Source: an uncultured Gammaproteobacteria bacterium (GTDB lineage: Bacteria; Patescibacteriota; Patescibacteriia; UBA2591; UBA6264). Taken from it: a stretch of DNA of 26,681 bases. The notes below the pieces were generated by a model, which was not told the origin of the DNA, made no database searches, and saw only the letters and a list, made by a program, of their open reading frames with translations. The position numbers were made by a program, and so were the translations under genes. Shown piece after piece: positions 1,523 to 26,681 of this stretch. The stretch covers positions 1 to 26,681 of the forward strand of contig CAZDOL010000009.1 of assembly GCA_964507075.1 (NCBI GenBank), written 5' to 3'. Numbering within the stretch: the first letter of the stretch is position 1; every line of letters begins with the position of its first letter.

Positions 1523-2902
1523 ATGAATTTTGATTTTATATTAAACCCAAATCTTTTATCTTTCTATATTGAGCAAGGTTTTTATTATTTTGCTCAGTTT
1601 TTTTTAAATTATGGTCTTTGGATATTTTTAACCCTTGTTATTTTAACAATAATATGGAAGCATTGGATAGACAAAAATAAGAAACAATATTTATCCAAAC
1701 AGAAATATATACTTTTGGGAATTAATATGCCCAAAGATAATGAGCAGGGCCCAGAAGCAGTGGAAAGATTTTTTGTGCATTTAGCAGGCATTAGAGAGAA
1801 ATTTACATGGTATGAAAAGAATATTCAAGGCAAAAGCCAACTGAATATATCTTTAGAAATGGTCAGCATTGAGGGACAAATTCAATTTTTTATACACACC
1901 CCAGTTCAATTTCGTGATTTAGTGGAATCAGCTATCTACACTTCTTATCCTAGTTTAGAAATTTTTGAAGAAAACCAAGATTACACAGATAATGCATTAG
2001 AAGGATTTTTAGAAGATAAGCATAATGTCTGGGGCGCGGACCTTAAACTGGTTGAACAAAATCCCATTCCCATTAAAACTTACCCTGAATTTGAGCACAA
2101 ACTTAGTAAAGAATTAAAAGATCCATTAATAGATCTTTTGGAAGTTTTGGGCAGATTGAAGGCAAGCGAACAAATTTGGCTCCAATTTATTATTACTCCA
2201 ATTGACTCAGAACTTAAGGAAGAGGGAGAGAGATTAATAAAAAAGATCTTACTTGGGAAGGATATTAAAAAAAATCCTAACAACATTATAGATATGGCTG
2301 TGCTTTTCCTGATGAAATTTGGGCAAGATGCAGTAGAATTTATTAAAGAAGTCCTAGATCTTCATCCAACGGTAGATAAATTTGAAGACAAAGAAGAAAA
2401 GAATATTTCTTTACCAGGAGACAAACGTTTGATTGATGCGATTCAAAATAAAATATCTAAAATCGCTTTTGAATCTTGCATCAGGATGGTTTATTTGGCT
2501 GATAAAGAAGTTTTTGCCAAAGATAGAGGTATAACAGGAACTTTGGGCGCTTTTAACGCTTTTCGCGCAATAGATTTAAATAGTTTTGAGGTTTCATTAG
2601 TTTCAAGGGTTGCTGAGAAGAATTGGAAGGGCAGTAAAATTTTAGAAGCCCAAAAACAAGAAGTTATTAAGGCATATCAAAAAAGAGCTTTCAAGTGGAG
2701 GGCAAGGGTTGGTATCCCTAAGATAATTTTTAAAGTTAAAAATTTTTTAACCCTACCTGAACGTTCGGCTCCCAAAAGCATTTTAAACACAGAGGAATTA
2801 GCCACTATTTATCATTTCCCAGTTAATATGATAAAAGTATCTCTTATTAAAAAAACCAGTAGCAAAAAAGCCGAACCACCATTAGGATTGCCCGTTAAGT
2901 AG
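1523..2902 (+). CDS. Hypothetical membrane-anchored protein (N-terminal TM segment, large soluble C-terminal region); function unknown
   Basis: Long uninterrupted ORF of 459 aa. Hydrophobic N-terminus (GLWIFLTLVILTIIW). No catalytic motif that I recognise. ELATIYHFP motif near the C-terminus. Confidence 0.7.
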   Translation: MNFDFILNPNLLSFYIEQGFYYFAQFFLNYGLWIFLTLVILTIIWKHWIDKNKKQYLSKQKYILLGINMPKDNEQGPEAVERFFVHLAGIREKFTWYEKNIQGKSQLNISLEMVSIEGQIQFFIHTPVQFRDLVESAIYTSYPSLEIFEENQDYTDNALEGFLEDKHNVWGADLKLVEQNPIPIKTYPEFEHKLSKELKDPLIDLLEVLGRLKASEQIWLQFIITPIDSELKEEGERLIKKILLGKDIKKNPNNIIDMAVLFLMKFGQDAVEFIKEVLDLHPTVDKFEDKEEKNISLPGDKRLIDAIQNKISKIAFESCIRMVYLADKEVFAKDRGITGTLGAFNAFRAIDLNSFEVSLVSRVAEKNWKGSKILEAQKQEVIKAYQKRAFKWRARVGIPKIIFKVKNFLTLPERSAPKSILNTEELATIYHFPVNMIKVSLIKKTSSKKAEPPLGLPVK

Positions 2903-3080
2903 CGACTTTGTCTGATAAAATCAAACCCGTAGGGTGAAGATTTTTCAGCAACAAAGACGACTACCCTGTTAAATACTGCTATGCAGTAATTTCGCCAAAG
3001 GCGAAATTATTTAACAGGGTGCTCAAAAATAAAATAAAATTTAATTCGCTTTGCTCTAAAATTTTAATATTTTTGGCATG
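2900..3080 (+). repeat. Structured intergenic element, copy A (full length, core in 'A/B' orientation)
   Basis: Runs from TAG at 2900, the stop of the upstream ORF, to ATG at 3078, the rsmI start. Hairpin module 2912-2948. Core 2963-3020, bounded by ACCCTGTTAAAT / ATTTAACAGGGT. Right arm 3021-3077. Its flanks are near-identical to copy D (26314-26493). Confidence 0.9.
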
Positions 3081-11080: not shown

Positions 11081-11115
11081 TAATAAATATTTAATAAATA
11101 ACTATATATATCACA

Positions 11116-11142
11116 ACACTACAGGGTCTGACCTTGTAGTGT
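11116..11142 (+). terminator. Hairpin of shared 3' module, copy 1 (after htrA)
   Basis: ACACTACAGGGT-CTG-ACCTTGTAGTGT forms a 12-nt-arm hairpin. It is part of a roughly 75-nt module that begins at the last codons and stop (..GAAGAATAA..ATATATATCACAACACT..). The downstream T tract is weak (ATTT). Confidence 0.55.
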
Positions 11143-12017: not shown

Positions 12018-12046
12018 AGATTTAAGAAATAATCATATATATCACA

Positions 12047-12073
12047 ACACTACAGGGTCCGACCCTGTAGTGT
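12047..12073 (+). terminator. Hairpin of shared 3' module, copy 2 (after the 261-aa gene)
   Basis: ACACTACAGGGTC-C-GACCCTGTAGTGT has perfect 13-nt arms and is followed by TTTTTGTAT. Confidence 0.7.
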
Positions 12074-12158
12074 TTTTGTATATAGATTGTTTGTGGGGTT
12101 TTTAATATTCTAATATTTTGATATAATATTATATATGGAAATTACAGAGTCTAAATAA
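12074..12158 (+). repeat. Duplicated copy of the prfB promoter and first codons (truncated remnant encoding MEITESK*)
   Basis: TTTTGTATATAG..TTGTGGGGTTTTT..TG-A-TATAAT..ATATATGGAAATTACAGAG matches 13246-13385 (TTTTTTTGTATTATAG..TTGTAGGGTTTTA..TG-G-TATAAT..ATATATGGAAATGACAGAA). ATG at 12135, stop at 12156-12158. Confidence 0.75.
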
Positions 12159-12244: not shown

Positions 12245-12285
12245 TATTGAACTAAATAATTTAATTTGTTCTAATTTTAAAATTT

Positions 12286-13170
12286 ATGATTAAAGAAAAT
12301 GATCAAGAATTTCAAGAAAAAGCTCTTGATTATATCCAAACTCTTTTATATCAAGGTGCAAACAAGGATTTAGTTGCCGAGAATTTAGCTGGGTTAGATT
12401 CAGACAGAGCATGGAAAATGCGAGAAGATTTTTTGGCCCAGGGCGTAGATAAGCGTTGGATTATTTCTGGTTTAGCTGGGTTAAATTCAGACAGAGCATG
12501 GAAAATGCGAGAAGAGCTTTTGTTTCAAGGCGTAAACAAGGATTTAGTTGCTCTGAGTTTAAGTGGTTTAGATTCAGATAGAGCATGGGATATGCGACAA
12601 GATCTTTTGTCTCAAGGCATACACAAGCCTGATATTGTTAGAGGTTTAGTTGGTTTAGATTCAGATAGAGCATGGAAAATGCGAGAAGAATTTTTTTCTA
12701 AGGGCACAGTCAAAGAATCAGTTCCCTTAAGTTTAATTGGTTTAGATTCAGATAGAGCATGGGATATGCGAAAGAGGATTTTGTCTAAAATCTATACTAA
12801 TTTATCTACTCAAGAATTATATCAGAATTGGGTTGCTCAGAGTTTAACTGGTTTAGATTCAGATAGAGCATGGAAAATGCGAGAAAATCTTTTGCTTCGA
12901 AAGGGAACAAGGAATTCAATTACTCAGAGTTTAGCTGGGTTAGATTCAGATAGAGCATGGGACATGAGAGAAAGAATGTTATCTTATGGCGTAAATAACA
13001 ATTGGATTGTTAAAAGTTTAGCTGGGTTAGATTCAGATAGAGCATGGGACATGAGAGAAAATTTTTTGTCTCAAGGCGCAGACGAGGGCCGTGTTGCTCA
13101 AGGAGTTTATGGTGATTATACAATGGTAGGTGTCAGAAAAGCAAGAAGAGATAAAGCAGAACAAGAATAA
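12286..13170 (+). CDS. Hypothetical tandem-repeat protein: eight copies of a 29-residue unit with core GLDSDRAW(K/D)MRE; predicted alpha-solenoid; function unknown
   Basis: Protein-level repeats such as LAGLDSDRAWKMREDFLAQGVDKRWIISG. The fifth unit is 37 aa. Alternating conserved hydrophobic and charged positions suggest a helical hairpin repeat. Confidence 0.75.
   Translation: MIKENDQEFQEKALDYIQTLLYQGANKDLVAENLAGLDSDRAWKMREDFLAQGVDKRWIISGLAGLNSDRAWKMREELLFQGVNKDLVALSLSGLDSDRAWDMRQDLLSQGIHKPDIVRGLVGLDSDRAWKMREEFFSKGTVKESVPLSLIGLDSDRAWDMRKRILSKIYTNLSTQELYQNWVAQSLTGLDSDRAWKMRENLLLRKGTRNSITQSLAGLDSDRAWDMRERMLSYGVNNNWIVKSLAGLDSDRAWDMRENFLSQGADEGRVAQGVYGDYTMVGVRKARRDKAEQE
12388..13107 (+). repeat. 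Intragenic 87-nt tandem repeat array (8 units; unit 5 is 111 nt)
   Basis: Units start at 12388, 12475, 12562, 12649, 12736, 12847, 12934 and 13021. The core GG(G/T)TTAGATTCAGA(C/T)AGAGCATGGGA/AAA.ATG is almost invariant at the nucleotide level. Confidence 0.9.
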
Positions 13171-13195: not shown

Positions 13196-13250
13196 CTCAA
13201 CACTCCAGAGCTGTACCCCGTTCTACGGGGTCTGACCTTGTAGTGTTTTT
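13196..13250 (+). terminator. Shared 3' module, copy 3 (after the repeat-protein gene), with an internal insertion
   Basis: Sequence is CTCAACACT-CCAGAGCTGTACCCCGTT-CTACGGGGTCTGACCTTGTAGTGT followed by TTTTTTT. It carries about 18 extra nt relative to copies 1 and 2. A CCCCG-TTCTA-CGGGG hairpin lies at 13216-13230. Confidence 0.6.
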
Positions 13251-13293
13251 TTGTATTATAGTTAATCTGTAGACGTTGGGCAAAAACATTAGT

Positions 13294-19248: not shown

Positions 19249-19283
19249 TATAGCTTTTGGGAAGAAATGTGGAAAAGTAAATC

Positions 19284-19312
19284 TTGCCAAAAAATTATTA
19301 ATAGGATATCAT
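19284..19312 (+). promoter_or_regulatory. Candidate promoter for tuf
   Basis: TTGCCA (19284-19289), a 17-nt spacer, then TATCAT (19307-19312). This would give a leader of about 170 nt before the tuf ATG. Confidence 0.35.
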
Positions 19313-19488
19313 TATTTATGAGCGAGCGAGCGAAAAGTAAATTCCTTTTCTTTTCCGAGCGAGCGAAATAAACAAAGGGTTTATTATCCTTTATTACTGT
19401 TTAATAAAATTAAAATAATTTCGCGATTGCTGTTATTCTTTTATTAATAATTAATTATTCAGCACGCGGAAATAATGAGGTAAATAAT

Positions 19489-20697
19489 ATGGCAGAAAAA
19501 GAAAAATTTGAAAGAGGCAAAACACATGTTAACGTGGGAACGATTGGTCACGTAGACCATGGCAAGACTACATTAACAGCAGCTATGTTAAAATGTTTAA
19601 AGTCCTCTGGCAAAAAGATTGACAAAGAAAGGACAGTAGACCAAATTGATAGCGCCCCAGAAGAAAAAGAAAGGGGAATCACTATTGCTTTGGCTCATGT
19701 TGAGTATGAAACTGACAAACGTCATTATGCTCATATTGATTGTCCTGGTCATGCTGATTATATTAAAAATATGATCACAGGCGCCGCTCAAATGGACGGC
19801 GCGATTTTAGTAATTTCGGCAACTGATGGACCTATGCCACAAACAAGAGAACATATCCTTTTGGCTCGCCAAGTTGGGGTTCCAGCTATAGTGGTTTTCT
19901 TAAATAAGACTGATATGGTAGAGGACAAAGAATTAATTGAATTAGTAAAAGAAGAGGTTAAGGATTTACTTAAGAAATATGAATATCCTGGTGACGAAAT
20001 TCCTATTATTGAAGGATCAGCGCTTAAGGCATTAGAATGTGGTTGTGGTAAAACAGATTGTCCTAATTGTGGTCCTATTTTAAAATTAATTGATTCCATA
20101 GATGAATATATTCCTGAACCCAAAAGAGACACTGATAAACCATTTTTAATGCCTATTGAAGATATCTTCTCAATTGAAGGAAGAGGCACCGTGGTTACTG
20201 GTAAGATTGAAAGAGGCAAGGTAAAAATCAACCAAGAGGTGGAAATTGTTGGTTTAAGGCCAACCAAAAAAACAGTAGTAACTGGAATAGAAATGTTTAG
20301 AAAATCATTAGACGAAGGTTTGGCTGGCGATAATGCGGGTATTCTTTTAAGAGGTACTAAAAAAGACGAAATAGAAAGAGGTCAAGTTTTAGCCGTACCT
20401 GGAACTGTAACGCCTCATACTGAATTTGAAGGCAAATCTTATATTCTTTCTAAAGATGAAGGTGGTCGTCACACCCCATTTTTTAATGGTTACAAACCTC
20501 AGTTTTATATTCGTACCACAGACGTAACTGGTGAAGCAGATTTACAGAAAGGAACTGAAATGGCAATGCCTGGTGATACCTTAAATCTTATCATCAAACT
20601 GTCTAAACCTATTGCTCTTGAGGAGCAACAAAGATTTGCCATCAGAGAAGGTAGTCGCACTGTTGGAGCAGGAGTAGTTACCAAGATAATCAAATAA
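19489..20697 (+). CDS. tuf: Elongation factor Tu, with a Cys4 insertion in the variable loop of domain I
   Basis: [14 protein letters not shown] and NKTD GTPase motifs. GAGG SD-like sequence at 19476-19479, nine nt upstream of the ATG. Insertion [13 protein letters not shown]. Confidence 0.97.
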
Positions 20698-21088: not shown

Positions 21089-21223
21089 AATTGAATTAAT
21101 AAAAGGTTTTTACTTACCATTGATAACCGTTTGTTGAATAACAAATGAAGTGTTAAGGGGAATTAATTACCTGGGGAGAAAAATTTTCATTAATTTAAAT
21201 CAGACAAAATAGAATAATAAATA

Positions 21224-21272
21224 AGCCGGATTTGTAACCGGTCTCTAAGGGTCTGGTTCTCTGGCTTTTTTT
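21224..21272 (+). terminator. Intrinsic-terminator-like long hairpin plus T7 tract inside the 217-nt rpsJ-rplC spacer
   Basis: AGCCGGA...AACCGGTCTC-TAA-GGGTCTGGTT.TCTGGCT is followed by TTTTTT(T). The outer helix is 7 bp and the inner helix about 9 bp, with G-U pairs and one mismatch. Confidence 0.55.
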
Positions 21273-21305
21273 ATTGAATATTTTTTATAACATTAAATAC
21301 AAGGT

Positions 21306-22549: not shown

Positions 22550-22553
22550 AGAC

Positions 22554-22649
22554 ATCAGGTACTTGGGTAATCAGGTACTTGGGTAATCAGGATTTTAATT
22601 ATTTAATTTACCCAATTAACCAATTAACCAAGCACCCAATTAACCAATT
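22554..22649. repeat. Tandem and interspersed short repeats in the rplD-rplW spacer
   Basis: The 16-nt unit ATCAGGTACTTGGGTA is present in 2.4 copies (22554-22591). CCCAATTAACCAATT occurs at 22611-22625 and 22635-22649. TTGGGTAA (22579-22586) is complementary to TTACCCAA (22608-22615). Confidence 0.85.
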
Positions 22650-23982: not shown

Positions 23983-24014
23983 ATTAGGAATTAGAAATTA
24001 GGAATTAGAAATTA
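23983..24014. repeat. 14-nt tandem repeat (ATTAGGAATTAGAA x2.3) filling the rplB-rpsS spacer
   Basis: Copies at 23983-23996 and 23997-24010, followed by a partial ATTA. There is a 7-nt sub-period (ATTAGGA / ATTAGAA). Confidence 0.85.
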
Positions 24015-24024
24015 TTTATATATT

Positions 24025-24336: not shown

Positions 24337-24936
24337 ATGCAAGTGCAAGCTCGAAGTAAGTATTTAAAAATCTCGGCCAAGAAAATGAGATTAGTGGCTG
24401 TAACTATTAAAGGAATGGATGTTTCTTATGCTTTAGATTATTTGAAATTCATTCCCCATAAAGCATCACCGTTAGTTTCTAAACTTCTTCATTCAGCCAT
24501 AGCTAACGCTGAGCATAATTTTAATCTTGATAGTCATAATCTATTTGTAAAAAAAATCTTTGCTGACGAAGGAACAATGCTTAAAAGGTGGCGCGCTAGA
24601 GCGTTTGGTAGAGCTACTCCTATACATAAAAAAAGTTCGCATTTAACAATTATTTTAGAAGAAAAAGTTCCTAGCAAGCAACAACATAAATCAAACGACA
24701 ATAAATTAAAAGAACCTTCTGTTTTAAAGACTGATTTGCATGAAACAAAAATAAAACCTTTAGAAAGTGTACATTCTGGGAAATTAGAGAAAGATGAAAT
24801 AGAAGAAGAAACTAAAGAGGGCAGAGACAGTCAGGAACAAGATAATAAATATCGCAAAAAACAAAATCTTAAGCGAGTTCAGAATAAATCTAAAGCCATA
24901 ACACTAAAAAAGATTTTCAGAAGAAAAAGTATTTAA
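24337..24936 (+). CDS. rplV: 50S ribosomal protein L22 with a charged C-terminal extension of about 90 aa
   Basis: The L22 core runs through ...RWRARAFGRATPIHKKSSHLTIILEE. It is followed by a K/E/Q-rich tail. Confidence 0.92.
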   Translation: MQVQARSKYLKISAKKMRLVAVTIKGMDVSYALDYLKFIPHKASPLVSKLLHSAIANAEHNFNLDSHNLFVKKIFADEGTMLKRWRARAFGRATPIHKKSSHLTIILEEKVPSKQQHKSNDNKLKEPSVLKTDLHETKIKPLESVHSGKLEKDEIEEETKEGRDSQEQDNKYRKKQNLKRVQNKSKAITLKKIFRRKSI

Positions 24937-25117
24937 AGGGCTTTGTCTGATAAAATCAAACCCGCAGGGTGAAGATTTTTCAGCAACAAAACCTTTACCC
25001 TGTTAAATACTGCTACGCAGTAATTTCGCCAGAGGCGAAATTATTTAACAGGGTACTCAAATTTGAAACGAAATTTCCTTCGTTACTTCGTAACTCGTAA
25101 ATTTAGACAAATTTAGT
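24937..25117 (+). repeat. Structured intergenic element, copy B (core in 'A/B' orientation, divergent right arm)
   Basis: Hairpin module 24947-24983. Core 24997-25054 (ACCCTGTTAAAT...ATTTAACAGGGT). The right arm differs from copies A and D and contains its own hairpin, AACGAA-ATTTCC-TTCGTT. Confidence 0.9.
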
Positions 25118-25768
25118 ATGGGCAGAAAAGTAAATCCAAAAATTTTCCGCATCCCGCTTATTAATCAGTGGGATTCAAAGTGGTTCGCTAGTAAAAATAA
25201 ATTCCGCCATTTTTTGGAGGAAGATTTACGAATTAGAAAATTTTTAAAGACAAAATTAAAAAATTGCGGAATTTCTAAAATAACTATAGAAAGATTTGCA
25301 GGAACATTTAGGGTAATAATTCATACCGCTAAACCTGGTTTGATTATTGGTAGAGGTGGCCTTGATATTGAAAAGCTAAAGAAGGTAATCAAGCTAAATT
25401 TTTTAAAAAATAAAGATTTGAATTTAGAAATTAATGTCATAGAAGAAAAATCACCTTTGTTAGCCGCAGAAGTAGTGTTAGAAGGAGCAATTTTGGAGTT
25501 AGAAAAAAGGATGCCATATAGACGAGTGTTGAAAAAGGTTATCAAGCAGGTTCAGGACGGAAAAGCTAATGGGGTTAAAATTATAGTCAAGGGACGTTTG
25601 GGCGGTGCCGAAATAGCCAGATCAGAAAAAGCGATCTGGGGAAATCTCCCCCTTCATACTCTACGCGCTGACATAGATTATGCTCGTGGAGTGGCAGCCA
25701 CTACCTATGGTTCTATTGGCGTTAAGGTTTGGATTTATAAAGGAGAGAAGTTTAGTAATTCTGTCTGA
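25118..25768 (+). CDS. rpsC: 30S ribosomal protein S3
   Basis: MGRKVNPKIFR...KH domain...GRLGGAEIARSE. The stop TGA (25766-25768) lies inside the repeat element's conserved TGTCTGATA. Confidence 0.95.
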   Translation: MGRKVNPKIFRIPLINQWDSKWFASKNKFRHFLEEDLRIRKFLKTKLKNCGISKITIERFAGTFRVIIHTAKPGLIIGRGGLDIEKLKKVIKLNFLKNKDLNLEINVIEEKSPLLAAEVVLEGAILELEKRMPYRRVLKKVIKQVQDGKANGVKIIVKGRLGGAEIARSEKAIWGNLPLHTLRADIDYARGVAATTYGSIGVKVWIYKGEKFSNSV

Positions 25769-25902
25769 TATTTTTAAGTCCGCAGGACGCAGAAAATTCA
25801 GCTACAGAATTGCTACCCTGTTAAATAATTTCGCCTTTGGCGAAATTGCCACGGAGTGGCATTTAACAGGGTGCTCAAAAATTAATAAATTAATTTTTTC
25901 GC
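25762..25902 (+). repeat. Structured intergenic element, copy C (core in 'C/D' orientation, short right arm, covarying hairpin module)
   Basis: Hairpin module 25765-25801. Core 25815-25872. Right arm GCTCAAAAATTAATAAATTAATTTTTTCGC runs up to ATG 25903. Confidence 0.9.
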
Positions 25903-26316
25903 ATGTTAATGCCCAAAAAGTTAAAACATCGCAAAAGTCATAAAGGACGCGCTAGGGGTAAGAGGATAGCCACTAGAGGTACGAGGGTTAGCTTTGGAGA
26001 TTTTGGATTAAAAGGATTGGATTTTTCTTGGATTACTTCTAGACAGATTGAGTCAGCTCGTCGCACCATAACTCATTCTCTGGCCAAAACTGGAAAGGTA
26101 TGGATTAGGATATTCCCACATAAACCAGTGACAGCTAAGGGAGCAGAAGTACCAATGGGCGGTGGTAAGGGAGCAGTTGATCATTATGTGGCGGTAGTTA
26201 AACCAGGTACTGTTCTTTTTGAGGTTGCTGGGGTTGAAGAAACAGTTGCTAAAGAAGCTTTTCGTTTAGCTTCGCATAAACTACCCGTAAAAACAAAGTT
26301 TGTTTATAGGGTATAG
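25903..26316 (+). CDS. rplP: 50S ribosomal protein L16
   Basis: [16 protein letters not shown]...; typical L16 over its whole length. Confidence 0.96.
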
Positions 26317-26493
26317 CGACTTTGTCTGATAAAATTGAACCCGCAGGGTGAAAATTTTTCAGCCACAAAGACGCTACCCTGTTAAATAATTTCGCTTACA
26401 GCGAAATTGCCGCAGAGCGGCATTTAACAGGGTGCTCAAAAATCTAATAAAATTTAATTCGCTTCGCTCTAAAATTTTAACATTTTTGGCATG
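26314..26493 (+). repeat. Structured intergenic element, copy D (full length, core in 'C/D' orientation)
   Basis: Runs from TAG 26314-26316, the rplP stop, to ATG 26491, the rpmC start. Hairpin module 26326-26362. Core 26376-26433. The right arm differs from copy A at only 4 positions. Confidence 0.9.
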
Positions 26494-26676
26494 AAAATAT
26501 CTGAATTTAAAGCAAAAACAAAACAAGAATTGCAAAAAATATGTAGATCTGAACAGGAAAAGTTGAGACTATTGCGTTTTGACATTAAACTCAAACAATC
26601 TAAAAATGTGAGAGAAATACGAAAAACTAGAAAGCTAATTTCTCAGATGTTAACAATTTTGAACACAAAAAAATGA
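26491..26676 (+). CDS. rpmC: 50S ribosomal protein L29
   Basis: Size of 61 aa, position after rplP, and ELQKICRSEQEKLRLLRFDIKLKQSKNVREIRKTRKLISQMLTIL. Confidence 0.9.
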   Translation: MKISEFKAKTKQELQKICRSEQEKLRLLRFDIKLKQSKNVREIRKTRKLISQMLTILNTKK

Positions 26677-26681
26677 TCAAT
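26673..26681 (+). CDS. Possible start of 30S ribosomal protein S17 (ATGA overlap with the rpmC stop); only 3 codons are in the window
   Basis: ATG at 26673 overlaps TGA at 26674-26676. S17 normally follows L29. There is far too little sequence to confirm this. Confidence 0.25.

Follow-up and report, generated by a model that had tools for sequence, protein, structure and literature searches.

The DNA analysed here is a 26,681-nt stretch from an uncultured member of the Patescibacteria, in the candidate phyla radiation (the whole stretch is referred to below as the window), and it raises the question of how nearly the same sequence came to lie in several gaps between genes, reaching each time from the end of one gene to the start of the next. 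The genomes of Patescibacteria are tiny and densely packed with genes, and knowledge of their mobile DNA and of how they control the expression of their operons is scarce.

An earlier note on this DNA had reported that the spacer upstream of rsmI (copy A) matches the one between rplP and rpmC (copy D), and this observation is confirmed. Both copies begin with TAGCGACTTTGTCTGATAAAAT and end with TCTAAAATTTTAA(T/C)ATTTTTGGCATGAA. The TAG is the stop codon of the DUF8128 gene in copy A and of rplP in copy D, and the ATG is the start codon of rsmI and of rpmC, respectively. The spacers are 175 nt (2903-3077) and 174 nt (26317-26490) long, and the outer parts of the two copies, named P1 and P3 below, are 91% (about 6 differences) and 93% (about 4 differences) identical. 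Copies A and D are alike from TAG through ATGAA, with about 90% identity over 175 nt, and their flanks are unrelated, both in the 20 nt 5′ of TAG and in all sequence past ATGAA. The shared end proposed in the note stands through the ATG; the AA that follows it is host sequence. Copies B and C are further members of this family (Table 1). None of the four window copies lies inside an ORF, and the core pattern of the element has four matches in the window and none in 100 shuffles. As the same arrangement recurs in many independent ENA and JGI assemblies, an assembly artefact is ruled out.

Table 1. Element copies in the window, with the extent of their three parts.
Feature	Position	Strand	Context or codon
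Copy A	2900..3080	+	between the 459-aa DUF8128 gene and rsmI
Copy A, P1	2900-2963	+	stop TAG 2900-2902
Copy A, Y module	2964-3019	+	
Copy A, P3	3020-3080	+	ATG 3078-3080
Copy B	24934..25120	+	between rplV and rpsC
Copy B, P1	24934-24997	+	stop TAA paired with TTA
Copy B, Y module	24998-25053	+	
Copy B, P3	25054-25120	+	ATG 25118-25120
Copy C	25753..25905	+	between rpsC and rplP
Copy C, P1	25753-25815	+	
Copy C, Y module	25816-25871	+	
Copy C, P3 (short)	25872-25905	+	ATG 25903-25905
Copy D	26314..26493	+	between rplP and rpmC
Copy D, P1	26314-26376	+	stop TAG 26314-26316
Copy D, Y module	26377-26432	+	
Copy D, P3	26433-26493	+	ATG 26491-26493

Following a suggestion of the earlier note, orthologous junctions were compared with those of relatives that lack the element. 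At the rplN-rplX junction, strains that are 99.77-99.97% identical over 12 kb differ only by a complete 174-nt fifth copy (copy E). The empty allele reads TAG AAATTTT ATG, and its 7-nt native spacer is missing from the filled allele. A second strain (L122), checked for more element polymorphism, differs only in the upstream context of tuf. The closest relative at the junction upstream of rsmI (RsmI 92% identical; L217/L218) is without the element there, and its two genes overlap as ATGA. It follows that the element brought both the TAG found in copy A and the gap between stop and start. Among the ribosomal protein genes, the relative L133 (96% identity in L16) lacks the element at all three junctions. 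It has TAA TATTTT ATG at rplP-rpmC, where the window has TAG, and TAA followed by 22 nt and ATG at rplV-rpsC. The related locus L134 carries a copy of a different subfamily at rplP-rpmC. At this L16-L29 junction both the window and L134 have a copy and the closer relative L133 has none, which may reflect a precise loss. In a further locus (L165), as compared to L149, the ATG of the element stands in place of the host ATG. In all five filled/empty comparisons (rplN-rplX, the DUF8128 gene-rsmI, rplP-rpmC, rplV-rpsC and rpsC-rplP) the native spacer is lost and no sequence is duplicated. The outcome that the note had named as refuting its inference, with the same stop and start codons and the flanking nucleotides already present without the element, was not found. 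The copies within this genome are 91-93% alike, as compared to 82-84% identity between its genes and their orthologs in L133.

Copy C shows that the stop triplet is intrinsic to the element, as this copy retains a TAG (25753-25755) that pairs with CTA although it lies out of frame and is not used. The S3 reading frame ends at a TGA (25766-25768) within the conserved GTCTGATA of this copy, as the note had observed. A tail of about 20 amino acids that S3 has in relatives is missing here, copy C having replaced about 20 codons of it. The idea that the element preserves both neighbouring ORFs consequently needs to be qualified, as the upstream ORF is not always spared.

The repeat is about 175 bases long, and each copy consists of a P1 hairpin, a Y-shaped middle module (Y module) and a P3 hairpin, directly abutting one another. 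In copies A to E, L134 and L060 the linkers between these domains measure 0 nt, no base is left unpaired next to the stop, and the two bases TG of the ATG are the only unpaired ones next to the start. P1 begins at the T of the stop codon, its basal helix holding the stop triplet, in which TAG pairs with CTA or TAA with TTA, and P3 closes at the A of the downstream ATG. Stop and start are placed side by side by the predicted fold. The Y module in this genome has 15-bp arms, TTYACCCTGTTAAAT, that enclose two small hairpins. In one subfamily P3 bears its own ATG. Copies A to E include stops in all three frames, with back-up stops that shut the other two frames within 40 nt.

Folding of each copy gave z scores of -6.3 to -9.1, and the helices are maintained by compensatory changes. 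In P3, 96% of the cells are paired and 11 of 20 pairs include double changes; its covariation score is 0.412, compared to 0.128 in shuffles (500 made, none reaching the observed score) and to no more than 0.075 with the partner slid. Double changes were found in 13 of the 15 P1 pairs. Selection specific to RNA was tested by sense and antisense stability and by G-U content, and no asymmetry was found: the fold is equally stable on both strands, and G-U pairs occupy 2 of 297 cells. Searching Rfam 15 at the gathering score identified only tRNAs in the window; at E ≤ 10 there was no credible match over 24800-26681, and in 18 loci from other phyla the Y sites gave no match. Over the window and these loci together, the matches were limited to tRNAs and a T-box. 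A terminator/promoter cassette was rejected, since there are no sites resembling intrinsic terminators and the sigma-70 promoter-like sites are at background (7 compared to 6.7 expected, no excess over shuffles). The junction of Y and P3 reads TTAACA-18-TAAAAT, which is promoter-like. Sequestration of a Shine-Dalgarno sequence was rejected as well, as no such sequence was found at any gene examined in these lineages.

The earlier note had treated the cassette as one complete unit. Its stop and start boundaries are supported, and the cassette proved to be modular rather than monolithic. The note had missed two features, an inversion and a mosaic. A 34-nt core of the middle module is inverted between copies A and B on one side and C and D on the other, and the long inner hairpins of A and C, with their loops, are exact reverse complements of each other. 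Hairpin loops between inverted repeats can flip. Copy B includes a P3 variant whose apical hairpin is longer. The mosaic is copy A: the base of its P1 and its P3 are D-like, while the tip of its P1 and its core are B-like (94% identity in the core). Copy E has D-like P1 and P3 around an unrelated core, and P3 was also found with middle hairpins other than Y modules.

The P1 to P3 architecture (TAA-AGGGCTTTGTC ... TTGGC-ATG) recurs in distant Patescibacteria, with the primary sequence of the basal helices conserved. All five copies in this species lie between co-directional genes, in one orientation, and abut the downstream ATG. Other lineages contributed about 14 more copies, every one of them in the same direction as its flanking genes; they extend to the ATG of a long ORF and start at the stop of the upstream ORF wherever such an ORF exists. 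The genes downstream of these are varied (TsaC, a 5′-3′ exonuclease, S19, S5, S14 and L2). The boundary rule is thus based on five copies in about 47 kb of this genome and about 14 elsewhere, and as a genome-wide rule it is an extrapolation. Strict polarity and strongly conserved basal helices would also suit a selected cis-acting function.

The Y module, a three-way junction of about 64 bp, is found alone in at least 8 phyla, in either orientation, nested or in tandem. Ten of 129 Y matches (two of them mirror-image halves of one palindromic contig) lie in open frame inside a long ORF, where they add about 20 residues (HPVK...FNRV). Essential genes are among the hosts, which include those for amidase/GatA, RrnaAD/KsgA, a class I aminoacyl-tRNA synthetase, Pol III delta′ and a MotA/ExbB family protein. 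The sole match in a cultured organism (Clostridium thermobutyricum, L053) was rejected, as it looks like a simple hairpin and is probably due to chance. Searching the literature by sequence and by topic found coincidences with PCR primers (a Picrophilus plasmid paper) and general papers on MITEs, and no description of the family.

We consider it reasonably probable that the cassette represents a family of non-autonomous, modular repeats of Patescibacteria that form hairpins, colonise co-directional gene junctions and spread by copying. The results above show its anatomy, the conservation of its structure, its polarity, its presence/absence polymorphism, the stop codon that it brings along, its mosaicism and its distribution; how the copies are made and why they are tolerated we infer as follows. 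New copies would arise at the DNA level, templated by an existing copy, and the likely route would be microhomology-guided template switching or gene conversion between gene ends. The earlier note had suggested gene conversion, and the mosaicism among copies argues in its favour. Copies D and E have TATAG in common on the left and ATGAAAAT on the right; the left-hand microhomologies are short (3-8 nt), and no donor of the recent copy E was found. An alternative route would be insertion just 5′ of the TG of the start codon, after which a deletion would occur between short direct repeats. If the insertion took place at A|TG of the E site, it would make an 8-bp direct repeat, TTTTATAG, and its collapse would yield the observed junction. 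By either route the element would take the place of the native spacer of 0-22 nt and, now and then, of a dispensable tail of the gene upstream. Modules would be swapped between copies, and the core of the middle module would flip.

Both neighbours would remain expressed because the unit carries its own punctuation: with its own stop codon and start context, it could spread through ribosomal-protein operons without breaking the flanking genes. The placement of stop and start side by side is plausibly tolerated in operons that are devoid of Shine-Dalgarno sequences, in which expression may depend on coupling.

A rather unlikely alternative, in our view, is that the element is a selected cis-acting RNA of polycistronic mRNAs, its spread representing recruitment rather than selfishness. 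P1 would then be a 3′ protective hairpin of the upstream cistron, the middle a cleavage site and P3 a 5′ hairpin of the downstream cistron; or else the fold would hold stop and start together to keep translation coupled. The co-orientation of every examined copy with transcription, the uninterrupted fold that joins the stop codon to the A of AUG, the strong covariation and the conservation of the basal helices across distant lineages would all suit such a role. Read-through of transcription is expected where intrinsic terminators are lacking, coupling and structure could matter in genomes without Shine-Dalgarno sequences, and unrelated long hairpins are found at the same operon junctions in many other Patescibacteria. 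However, close relatives and even co-existing strains do without the element at the same junctions, and its target genes are functionally unrelated. The helices are near-perfect Watson-Crick on both strands with G-U pairs almost absent, the middle module occurs in either orientation and within ORFs of other genomes, and no Rfam family matches. Moreover, structure right after a stop codon reduces coupling in published screens (PMC12548453).

We also think it unlikely that the cassette goes beyond a tolerated parasite and is a mobile "punctuation module", folded and recognised whole by ribosomes or RNases, and that its Y core is mobilised by a hairpin-specific DNA enzyme common to at least 8 phyla. 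By analogy with tRNA punctuation, such a module might be cleaved or excised at the bases of P1 and P3, or it might act as a structured bridge for termination-reinitiation in Patescibacteria devoid of Shine-Dalgarno sequences. The putative enzyme would account for the flip/flop cores, the nesting at hairpin tips, the absent target duplications and the fact that the 15-bp arms are invariant.

That the element is a classical MITE is quite improbable. A transposase acting in trans would then recognise terminal inverted repeats (TIRs) and make target-site duplications (TSDs), and the boundaries would be due only to selection against disruptive insertions. Like a MITE the element is multicopy and polymorphic, and inverted arms of 15 bp are present in its Y module. 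However, the ends of the unit as a whole are not inverted repeats: comparing the first 45 nt to the reverse complement of the last 45 nt gave best local scores of 6-9, with a shuffle mean of 6.9 and maximum of 12. The five filled/empty comparisons described above show no target duplication, and no consistent TSD was found flanking 124 Y copies. In 1.4 Mb of loci there was no long, autonomous element with the same arms, only scattered solo half-sites, and IMG/VR viral contigs, plasmids and phages gave no matches. With neither TIRs nor TSDs, the classical MITE was rejected. That the boundary identity of A and D is a coincidence between AT-rich spacers sharing merely TAG and ATG is practically ruled out: ATGAA does reach only 2 nt into the genes, both of them host sequence, but this reading is refuted by the extent of the A/D identity and the comparison of their ends, the core-pattern shuffles, the compensatory changes, the empty sites and the relatives of the element in other genomes.

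A repeat family that replaces spacers inside the most conserved operon of bacteria would represent a route for selfish DNA into translationally coupled essential genes, and it offers a natural experiment on how initiation proceeds across a structure of 175 nt where Shine-Dalgarno sequences are lacking. Gene calling is affected as well, since stop codons are new, S3 tails are truncated and N-terminal residues are added. The Y module merits separate study: it could mark horizontal flow of DNA between episymbionts and other bacteria, and it hints at a putative hairpin-processing activity.

The insertion logic, which the earlier note had considered unusual, has a partial precedent in mycobacterial MIRUs. 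These are small mobile repeats found in one orientation in the intercistronic gaps of operons, and their insertion at start codons leaves the neighbouring gene expressed (PMC12548453). The cassette is likewise intercistronic between co-directional genes, fixed in orientation and abutting a start codon. However, neutrality of MIRUs is achieved by an internal small ORF coupled at -4 nt, and a relay ORF of this type was rejected here since three-frame translation of copies A to E is closed in every frame. The cassette also consists of three conserved hairpins, is not tandemly repeated and has no sequence in common with MIRUs.

BOX elements of Streptococcus pneumoniae and BIME/REP mosaics of enterobacteria are modular intergenic repeats made of separable, structure-forming modules. 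They are transcribed within operons, are not known to encode a transposase and include modules in alternate orientations. The cassette resembles them in its combinable, structure-forming units, but they differ from it in sequence and host phylum and are not known to extend exactly from stop to start or to carry these codons. REPs are short (20-40-nt) GC-rich palindromes with a GTAG/CGTC head, linked to RAYT transposases; no unit headed in this way is visible in the element sequences of the window.

Integron attC sites have R″ and R′ boxes in the order 5′-RYYYAAC ... GTTRRRY-3′ at the hairpin base. They were rejected, as the order is reversed in the Y arms, with GTTAAAT...ATTTAAC on either strand, and ribosomal genes in conserved order are not integron cassettes. 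The inverted cores recall the hairpin-associated minute inversions of chloroplast non-coding DNA and the flip/flop ITR hairpins of parvoviruses, where an asymmetric interior between inverted arms occurs in two orientations. The Y core of A and B is similarly the reverse complement of that of C and D, although this is an analogy of DNA behaviour only, with no role as a replication origin or telomere.

Correia elements of Neisseria are repeats of about 100-150 nt that are co-transcribed with their neighbours, contain TATAG in their termini and can supply stop codons and promoter-like hexamers. TATAG, supplied stop codons and co-transcription are common to both families, but the 26-bp terminal inverted repeats and the TA target duplication of Correia elements are absent here, as the earlier note's distinction would have it. 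Its distinction from the Rickettsia palindromic elements (RPEs) holds for the cassette and not for the middle module, which elsewhere acts as an RPE-like palindromic repeat, both in intergenic DNA and in frame in conserved protein genes. RPEs are 100-150 bp long and are not known outside Rickettsia; the Y module differs in its smaller size, its three-way junction and its spread over phyla, and here it is set within a larger polar cassette. We conclude that the cassette represents a new modular mobile repeat family, which resembles MIRUs, BOX/BIME elements and RPEs and belongs to none of them.

The window is low in GC and of Patescibacteria type, and all of its genes lie on the plus strand: dnaJ, a gene for a 459-aa DUF8128 protein (hyp), rsmI, metG, cvpA, nrdD, nrdG, htrA and others, then tuf and the S10 operon (S10, L3, L4, L23, L2, S19, L22, S3, L16, L29). 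Native spacers of this genome are AT-rich and short and lack a Shine-Dalgarno sequence. Four copies (A to D) of a repeat cassette that runs from the stop codon of one gene to the start codon of the next were located. The match between copy A (hyp-rsmI) and copy D (rplP-rpmC) that the earlier note had described was borne out. Their first 22 nt are the same (TAGCGACTTTGTCTGATAAAAT), their final 28 nt (...TTTTGGCATGAA) contain one difference, and the 20 nt outside either end are unrelated. The spacers are 175 nt (A) and 174 nt (D) long, and the outer two of their three abutting hairpin modules (P1, Y and P3, 5' to 3') are 91% (P1) and 93% (P3) identical. Chance as the origin of the repeat is excluded, as the conserved core pattern has four matches in the window and none in 100 shuffles. 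The arrangement of copies recurs at 99.7-100% identity in many independent ENA/JGI assemblies and is therefore not an assembly artefact.

Positions of the cassette copies, of Y modules and of other features in the window and in retrieved loci (L plus number)
Feature	Sequence	Positions
Cassette copy A	Window	2900-3080
Cassette copy B	Window	24934-25120
Cassette copy C	Window	25753-25905
Cassette copy D	Window	26314-26493
Tandem Y copies	L009	2051-2161
Y nested in a Y	L038	831-889
Y nested in a Y	L082	2373-2428
Y nested in a Y	L106	6868-6923
Y in frame in conserved gene (others exist)	L005	6849-6904
Y in frame in conserved gene	L004	679-734
Y in frame in conserved gene	L016	4882-4937
Y in frame in conserved gene	L100	1869-1922
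Y in frame in conserved gene	L066	2648-2697
S3-L16 spacer	L172	2970-3570
CACAACACTACAGGGTCYGACCYTGTAGTGT repeats	Window	11105-11142, 12037-12084, 13223-13256
87-nt tandem repeats	Window	12272-13168
294-aa ORF	Window	12286-13170
S10-L3 spacer	Window	21089-21305
GGTACTTGGGTAATCAG/GGAATTAGAAATTA motifs	Window	22550-22600, 23983-24024
GGTACTTGGGTAATCAG/GGAATTAGAAATTA motifs	L121	12084-12166, 17740-17788
rpsL-rpsG-fusA before tuf	L122	1-3260
ndk in their place	L121/window	19249-19750
In-frame indel in S3	L204	3475-3626

Each of copies A-D folds as three hairpin domains without linkers (z = -6.3 to -9.1). P1 (63-64 nt) starts at the T of the stop triplet; at its base, copies A, C and D pair TAG with CTA, and copy B pairs TAA with TTA. 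In the middle module, CCCTGTTAAAT, two small hairpins and ATTTAACAGGG, in this order, make up a three-way junction. P3 is closed by U-A, G-C and C-G pairs (or U-A, A-U and C-G), formed with the last two bases of the spacer and the initial A of the start codon. In copies A-D, a fifth copy (E, at rplN-rplX of related contigs) and the relatives in L134 and L060, the fold from stop to start pairs every base at the 5' end, and at the 3' end just the TG of the start codon stays unpaired. In the family alignment, 96% of P3 cells are paired, 11 of the 20 pairs show double changes, and covariation reaches 0.412; shuffles give 0.128, with none of 500 reaching the observed value, and slid partners give 0.075 at most. 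P1 shows double changes in 13 of 15 pairs, and the sequence of its basal helix is conserved. All three frames are closed within 40 nt of the 5' end, by TAG, a TGA in GTCTGATA and a later TGA, and no ORF bridging the element was found in any of them. No terminator-like site was found in the element; a promoter-like match (TTAACA-18-TAAAAT) spans the Y/P3 junction, and such matches are no more frequent than in shuffles.

At rplN-rplX, a single indel separates contigs of the same species that are 99.77-99.97% identical over 12 kb. L121-L123 carry the 174-nt copy E, while L124-L126 read TAG AAATTTT ATG, a native 7-nt spacer that the filled allele lacks. In L133, whose L16 is 96% identical, the element is missing from all three S10-operon junctions (TAA+22 nt+ATG, TAG ACGATTT ATG and TAA TATTTT ATG); the last of these is rplP-rpmC, so the rplP stop is TAA there and TAG in the window. 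In L217 and L218, with RsmI at 92% identity, rsmI and the DUF8128 gene overlap (...GTTAAATGAAAT...), which makes copy A's TAG new, and likewise the gap between stop and start. In a slightly more distant relative at 87% (L213-L215) this junction holds a different 75-nt insert, a GC-rich hairpin (GACGTCCAACGTCCACAGCGCTGTGGACGTTGGACGTC) followed by a P3-like 3' tail, and was thus hit or remodelled independently. At rpsC-rplP, the empty state is certainly ancestral. S3 of relatives runs about 20 residues beyond KGEKF, and S3 of the window ends KGEKF-SNSV*, from element codons and the TGA inside GTCTGATA; the insertion of copy C thus took away host sequence, namely the S3 tail. The TAG of copy C itself is out of frame and still paired, which makes the stop triplet intrinsic to the element. 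In another lineage, the S19-L22 junction of L149 reads TAA ATT ATG CAATAC, and that of L165 (90% identical) holds a 254-nt relative of the element ending AAATTT ATG GCA CAATAC, so the L165 start codon comes from the element. The compared empty sites did not show what the earlier note had named as refuting, namely identical stop, start and flanks already in place where the element is missing. The proposal of a stop-to-start cassette is supported, and it can be widened to a family that spans the Patescibacteria.

Profile searches of 1.46 Mb of retrieved loci identified relatives of P1 and P3 in many other Patescibacteria lineages (L134, L082, L151, L172, L166, L007, L060, L116, L025, L165 and L088, and two each in L144 and L173). 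All are co-oriented with the flanking genes and finish ...TTGG(C/T) ATG, the start of a long ORF; where there is an upstream ORF, its stop is the opening triplet of TAA(A)GRGYTTTGTC. The downstream genes encode, among others, a TsaC/Sua5-type protein, a 5'-3' exonuclease, a membrane protein, S19, S5, S14 and L2, so the element is not confined to ribosomal genes. In its middle position the family has either Y or a different hairpin with a CCC...GGG base. In L172, from another lineage, the S3-L16 spacer is 601 nt long: a middle-type hairpin and a P3 module are separated there by an inserted GC-rich ORF of 90 aa, which lies on the opposite strand and is preceded by a Shine-Dalgarno-like site of its own. 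Hairpin-forming spacers of 60-200 nt, from stop to start and unrelated in sequence to the window's element, were also seen at several ribosomal-operon junctions of many other Patescibacteria lineages (S10/spc operons of L147, L185, L167, L151, L166, L182, L210 and L196). One such spacer family, TATGCCCGC...GCGGGT ATG, is present in L185 (two copies) and L167.

The Y module also occurs on its own. A scan for its arms in GTDB representative genomes returned at least 120 stretches, and the matches listed come from at least eight phyla, including Patescibacteria (many classes), Desulfobacterales, WOR-3, Omnitrophota, Stahlbacteria, Armatimonadota, Acidobacteriota and Deferribacteraceae. The arms reach 15 bp (TTYA|CCCTGTTAAAT), and at least 82 of the 119 distinct cores among the matches listed have the two-hairpin fold. 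Tandem copies, and copies nested in one small hairpin of another Y, suggest a preference for hairpin tips. Ten of 129 among the matches listed, two of them the mirrored halves of a single palindromic contig, sit within long ORFs and keep the frame, contributing about 20 residues (HPVK...FNRV) to proteins that include amidase/GatA, KsgA, a class I aminoacyl-tRNA synthetase, Pol III delta' and MotA/ExbB. IMG/VR viral contigs gave no match to Y, nor did plasmid and phage records to the whole cassette.

Copies combine modules of different types. In copy A, the base of P1 and all of P3 are D-type, and the P1 tip and the core are B-type (core 94% identity); copy E is D-type in P1 (94%) and P3 (87%) with an unrelated core. 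The L14-L24 (25 nt) and L24-L5 (32 nt) spacers of L134 resemble the 3' end of copy B P3, or both cassette ends, CTTGTAAATTTAGACAAATTTGGGT being close to the final 24 nt of copy B; they may be what deletions have left of earlier copies. Summed over 12 copies, the antisense strand folds as well as the sense strand (-776 and -769 kcal/mol), G-U pairs fill 2 of 297 P3 cells, and the long inner hairpin of copy A is the exact reverse complement of that of copy C, loop included. These are properties of DNA palindromes. Hairpin interiors between inverted repeats are known to tend to invert, which most simply explains the flip/flop of the Y core. The polarity of the cassette relative to genes and its conserved basal helix would also fit a cis-acting RNA selected for processing, stability or coupling, but we regard this as unlikely: strains that co-exist with carriers have no element at these junctions, the target genes are functionally unrelated, G-U pairs are nearly missing and the core is accepted in both orientations. 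A classical TIR/TSD MITE is disfavoured, and no target duplication was detectable at Y copies among the matches listed.

Despite these traits of DNA palindromes, the constant orientation of P1 and P3 with respect to transcription shows that selection bears on what is tolerable for the transcript or for the ORFs on either side. Tolerance would stem from a stop in each frame and a start context brought by the element, from its lack of a terminator and from a compact fold that sets stop beside start. Two DNA-level routes are compatible with all junctions. In one, a resident copy would serve as source for gene conversion or for template switching guided by microhomology; copies D and E have TATAG in common at their left side and ATGAAAAT at their right, and ATGAAA starts are frequent among genes here. 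Neither a donor copy for E nor a candidate enzyme was found. Alternatively, the element would insert directly 5' of the TG of the start codon, after which short direct repeats would collapse. At hyp-rsmI this would yield the observed sequence with zero host bases lost, and at rplN-rplX it would make TTTTATAG...TTTTATAG 3 nt apart, whose collapse would give the observed junction; a TATA repeat would act likewise at rplP-rpmC, turning TAA into TAG.

Several other features were observed. A second repeat family in the window (CACAACACTACAGGGTCYGACCYTGTAGTGT, then T-rich sequence) comes after three consecutive genes and looks like terminator-type hairpins in duplicated spacers. The 294-aa ORF contains at least six tandem repeats of 87 nt (29 codons). 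The S10-L3 spacer, inside the operon, is unusually long (217 nt), and in it a T run comes after a GC-rich hairpin (AGCCGGATTTGTAACCGGTCTCTAAGGGTCTGGTTCTCTGGCTTTTTTT). Several spacers share short motifs, tandem or dispersed (GGTACTTGGGTAATCAG; GGAATTAGAAATTA), and the L23 ORF may begin at a TTG (22579) and so be extended at its N terminus. The context of tuf in L122, together with its initial ~250 nt, which are unlike those of the window's tuf, suggests two tuf copies or a rearrangement. In another lineage, the 98.5% identical contigs L204 and L205 differ by a 150-nt indel in the C-terminal Gly/Arg-rich tail of S3.

The feature is real. No Rfam family matches the cassette, no description of its family was found in the literature searched, and we rate it as a small non-autonomous structured repeat, a so far undescribed variant of such repeats. 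BOX and BIME elements are modular and mosaic, as is the cassette, and RPEs have their in-frame behaviour in common with the Y module. Correia elements resemble the cassette in being co-transcribed but differ from it in having TIRs and TA duplications. The cassette has no relay ORF, unlike the mycobacterial MIRUs, whose logic is nevertheless the closest: they insert at operon start codons and are neutral via a coupled internal ORF (PMC12548453).
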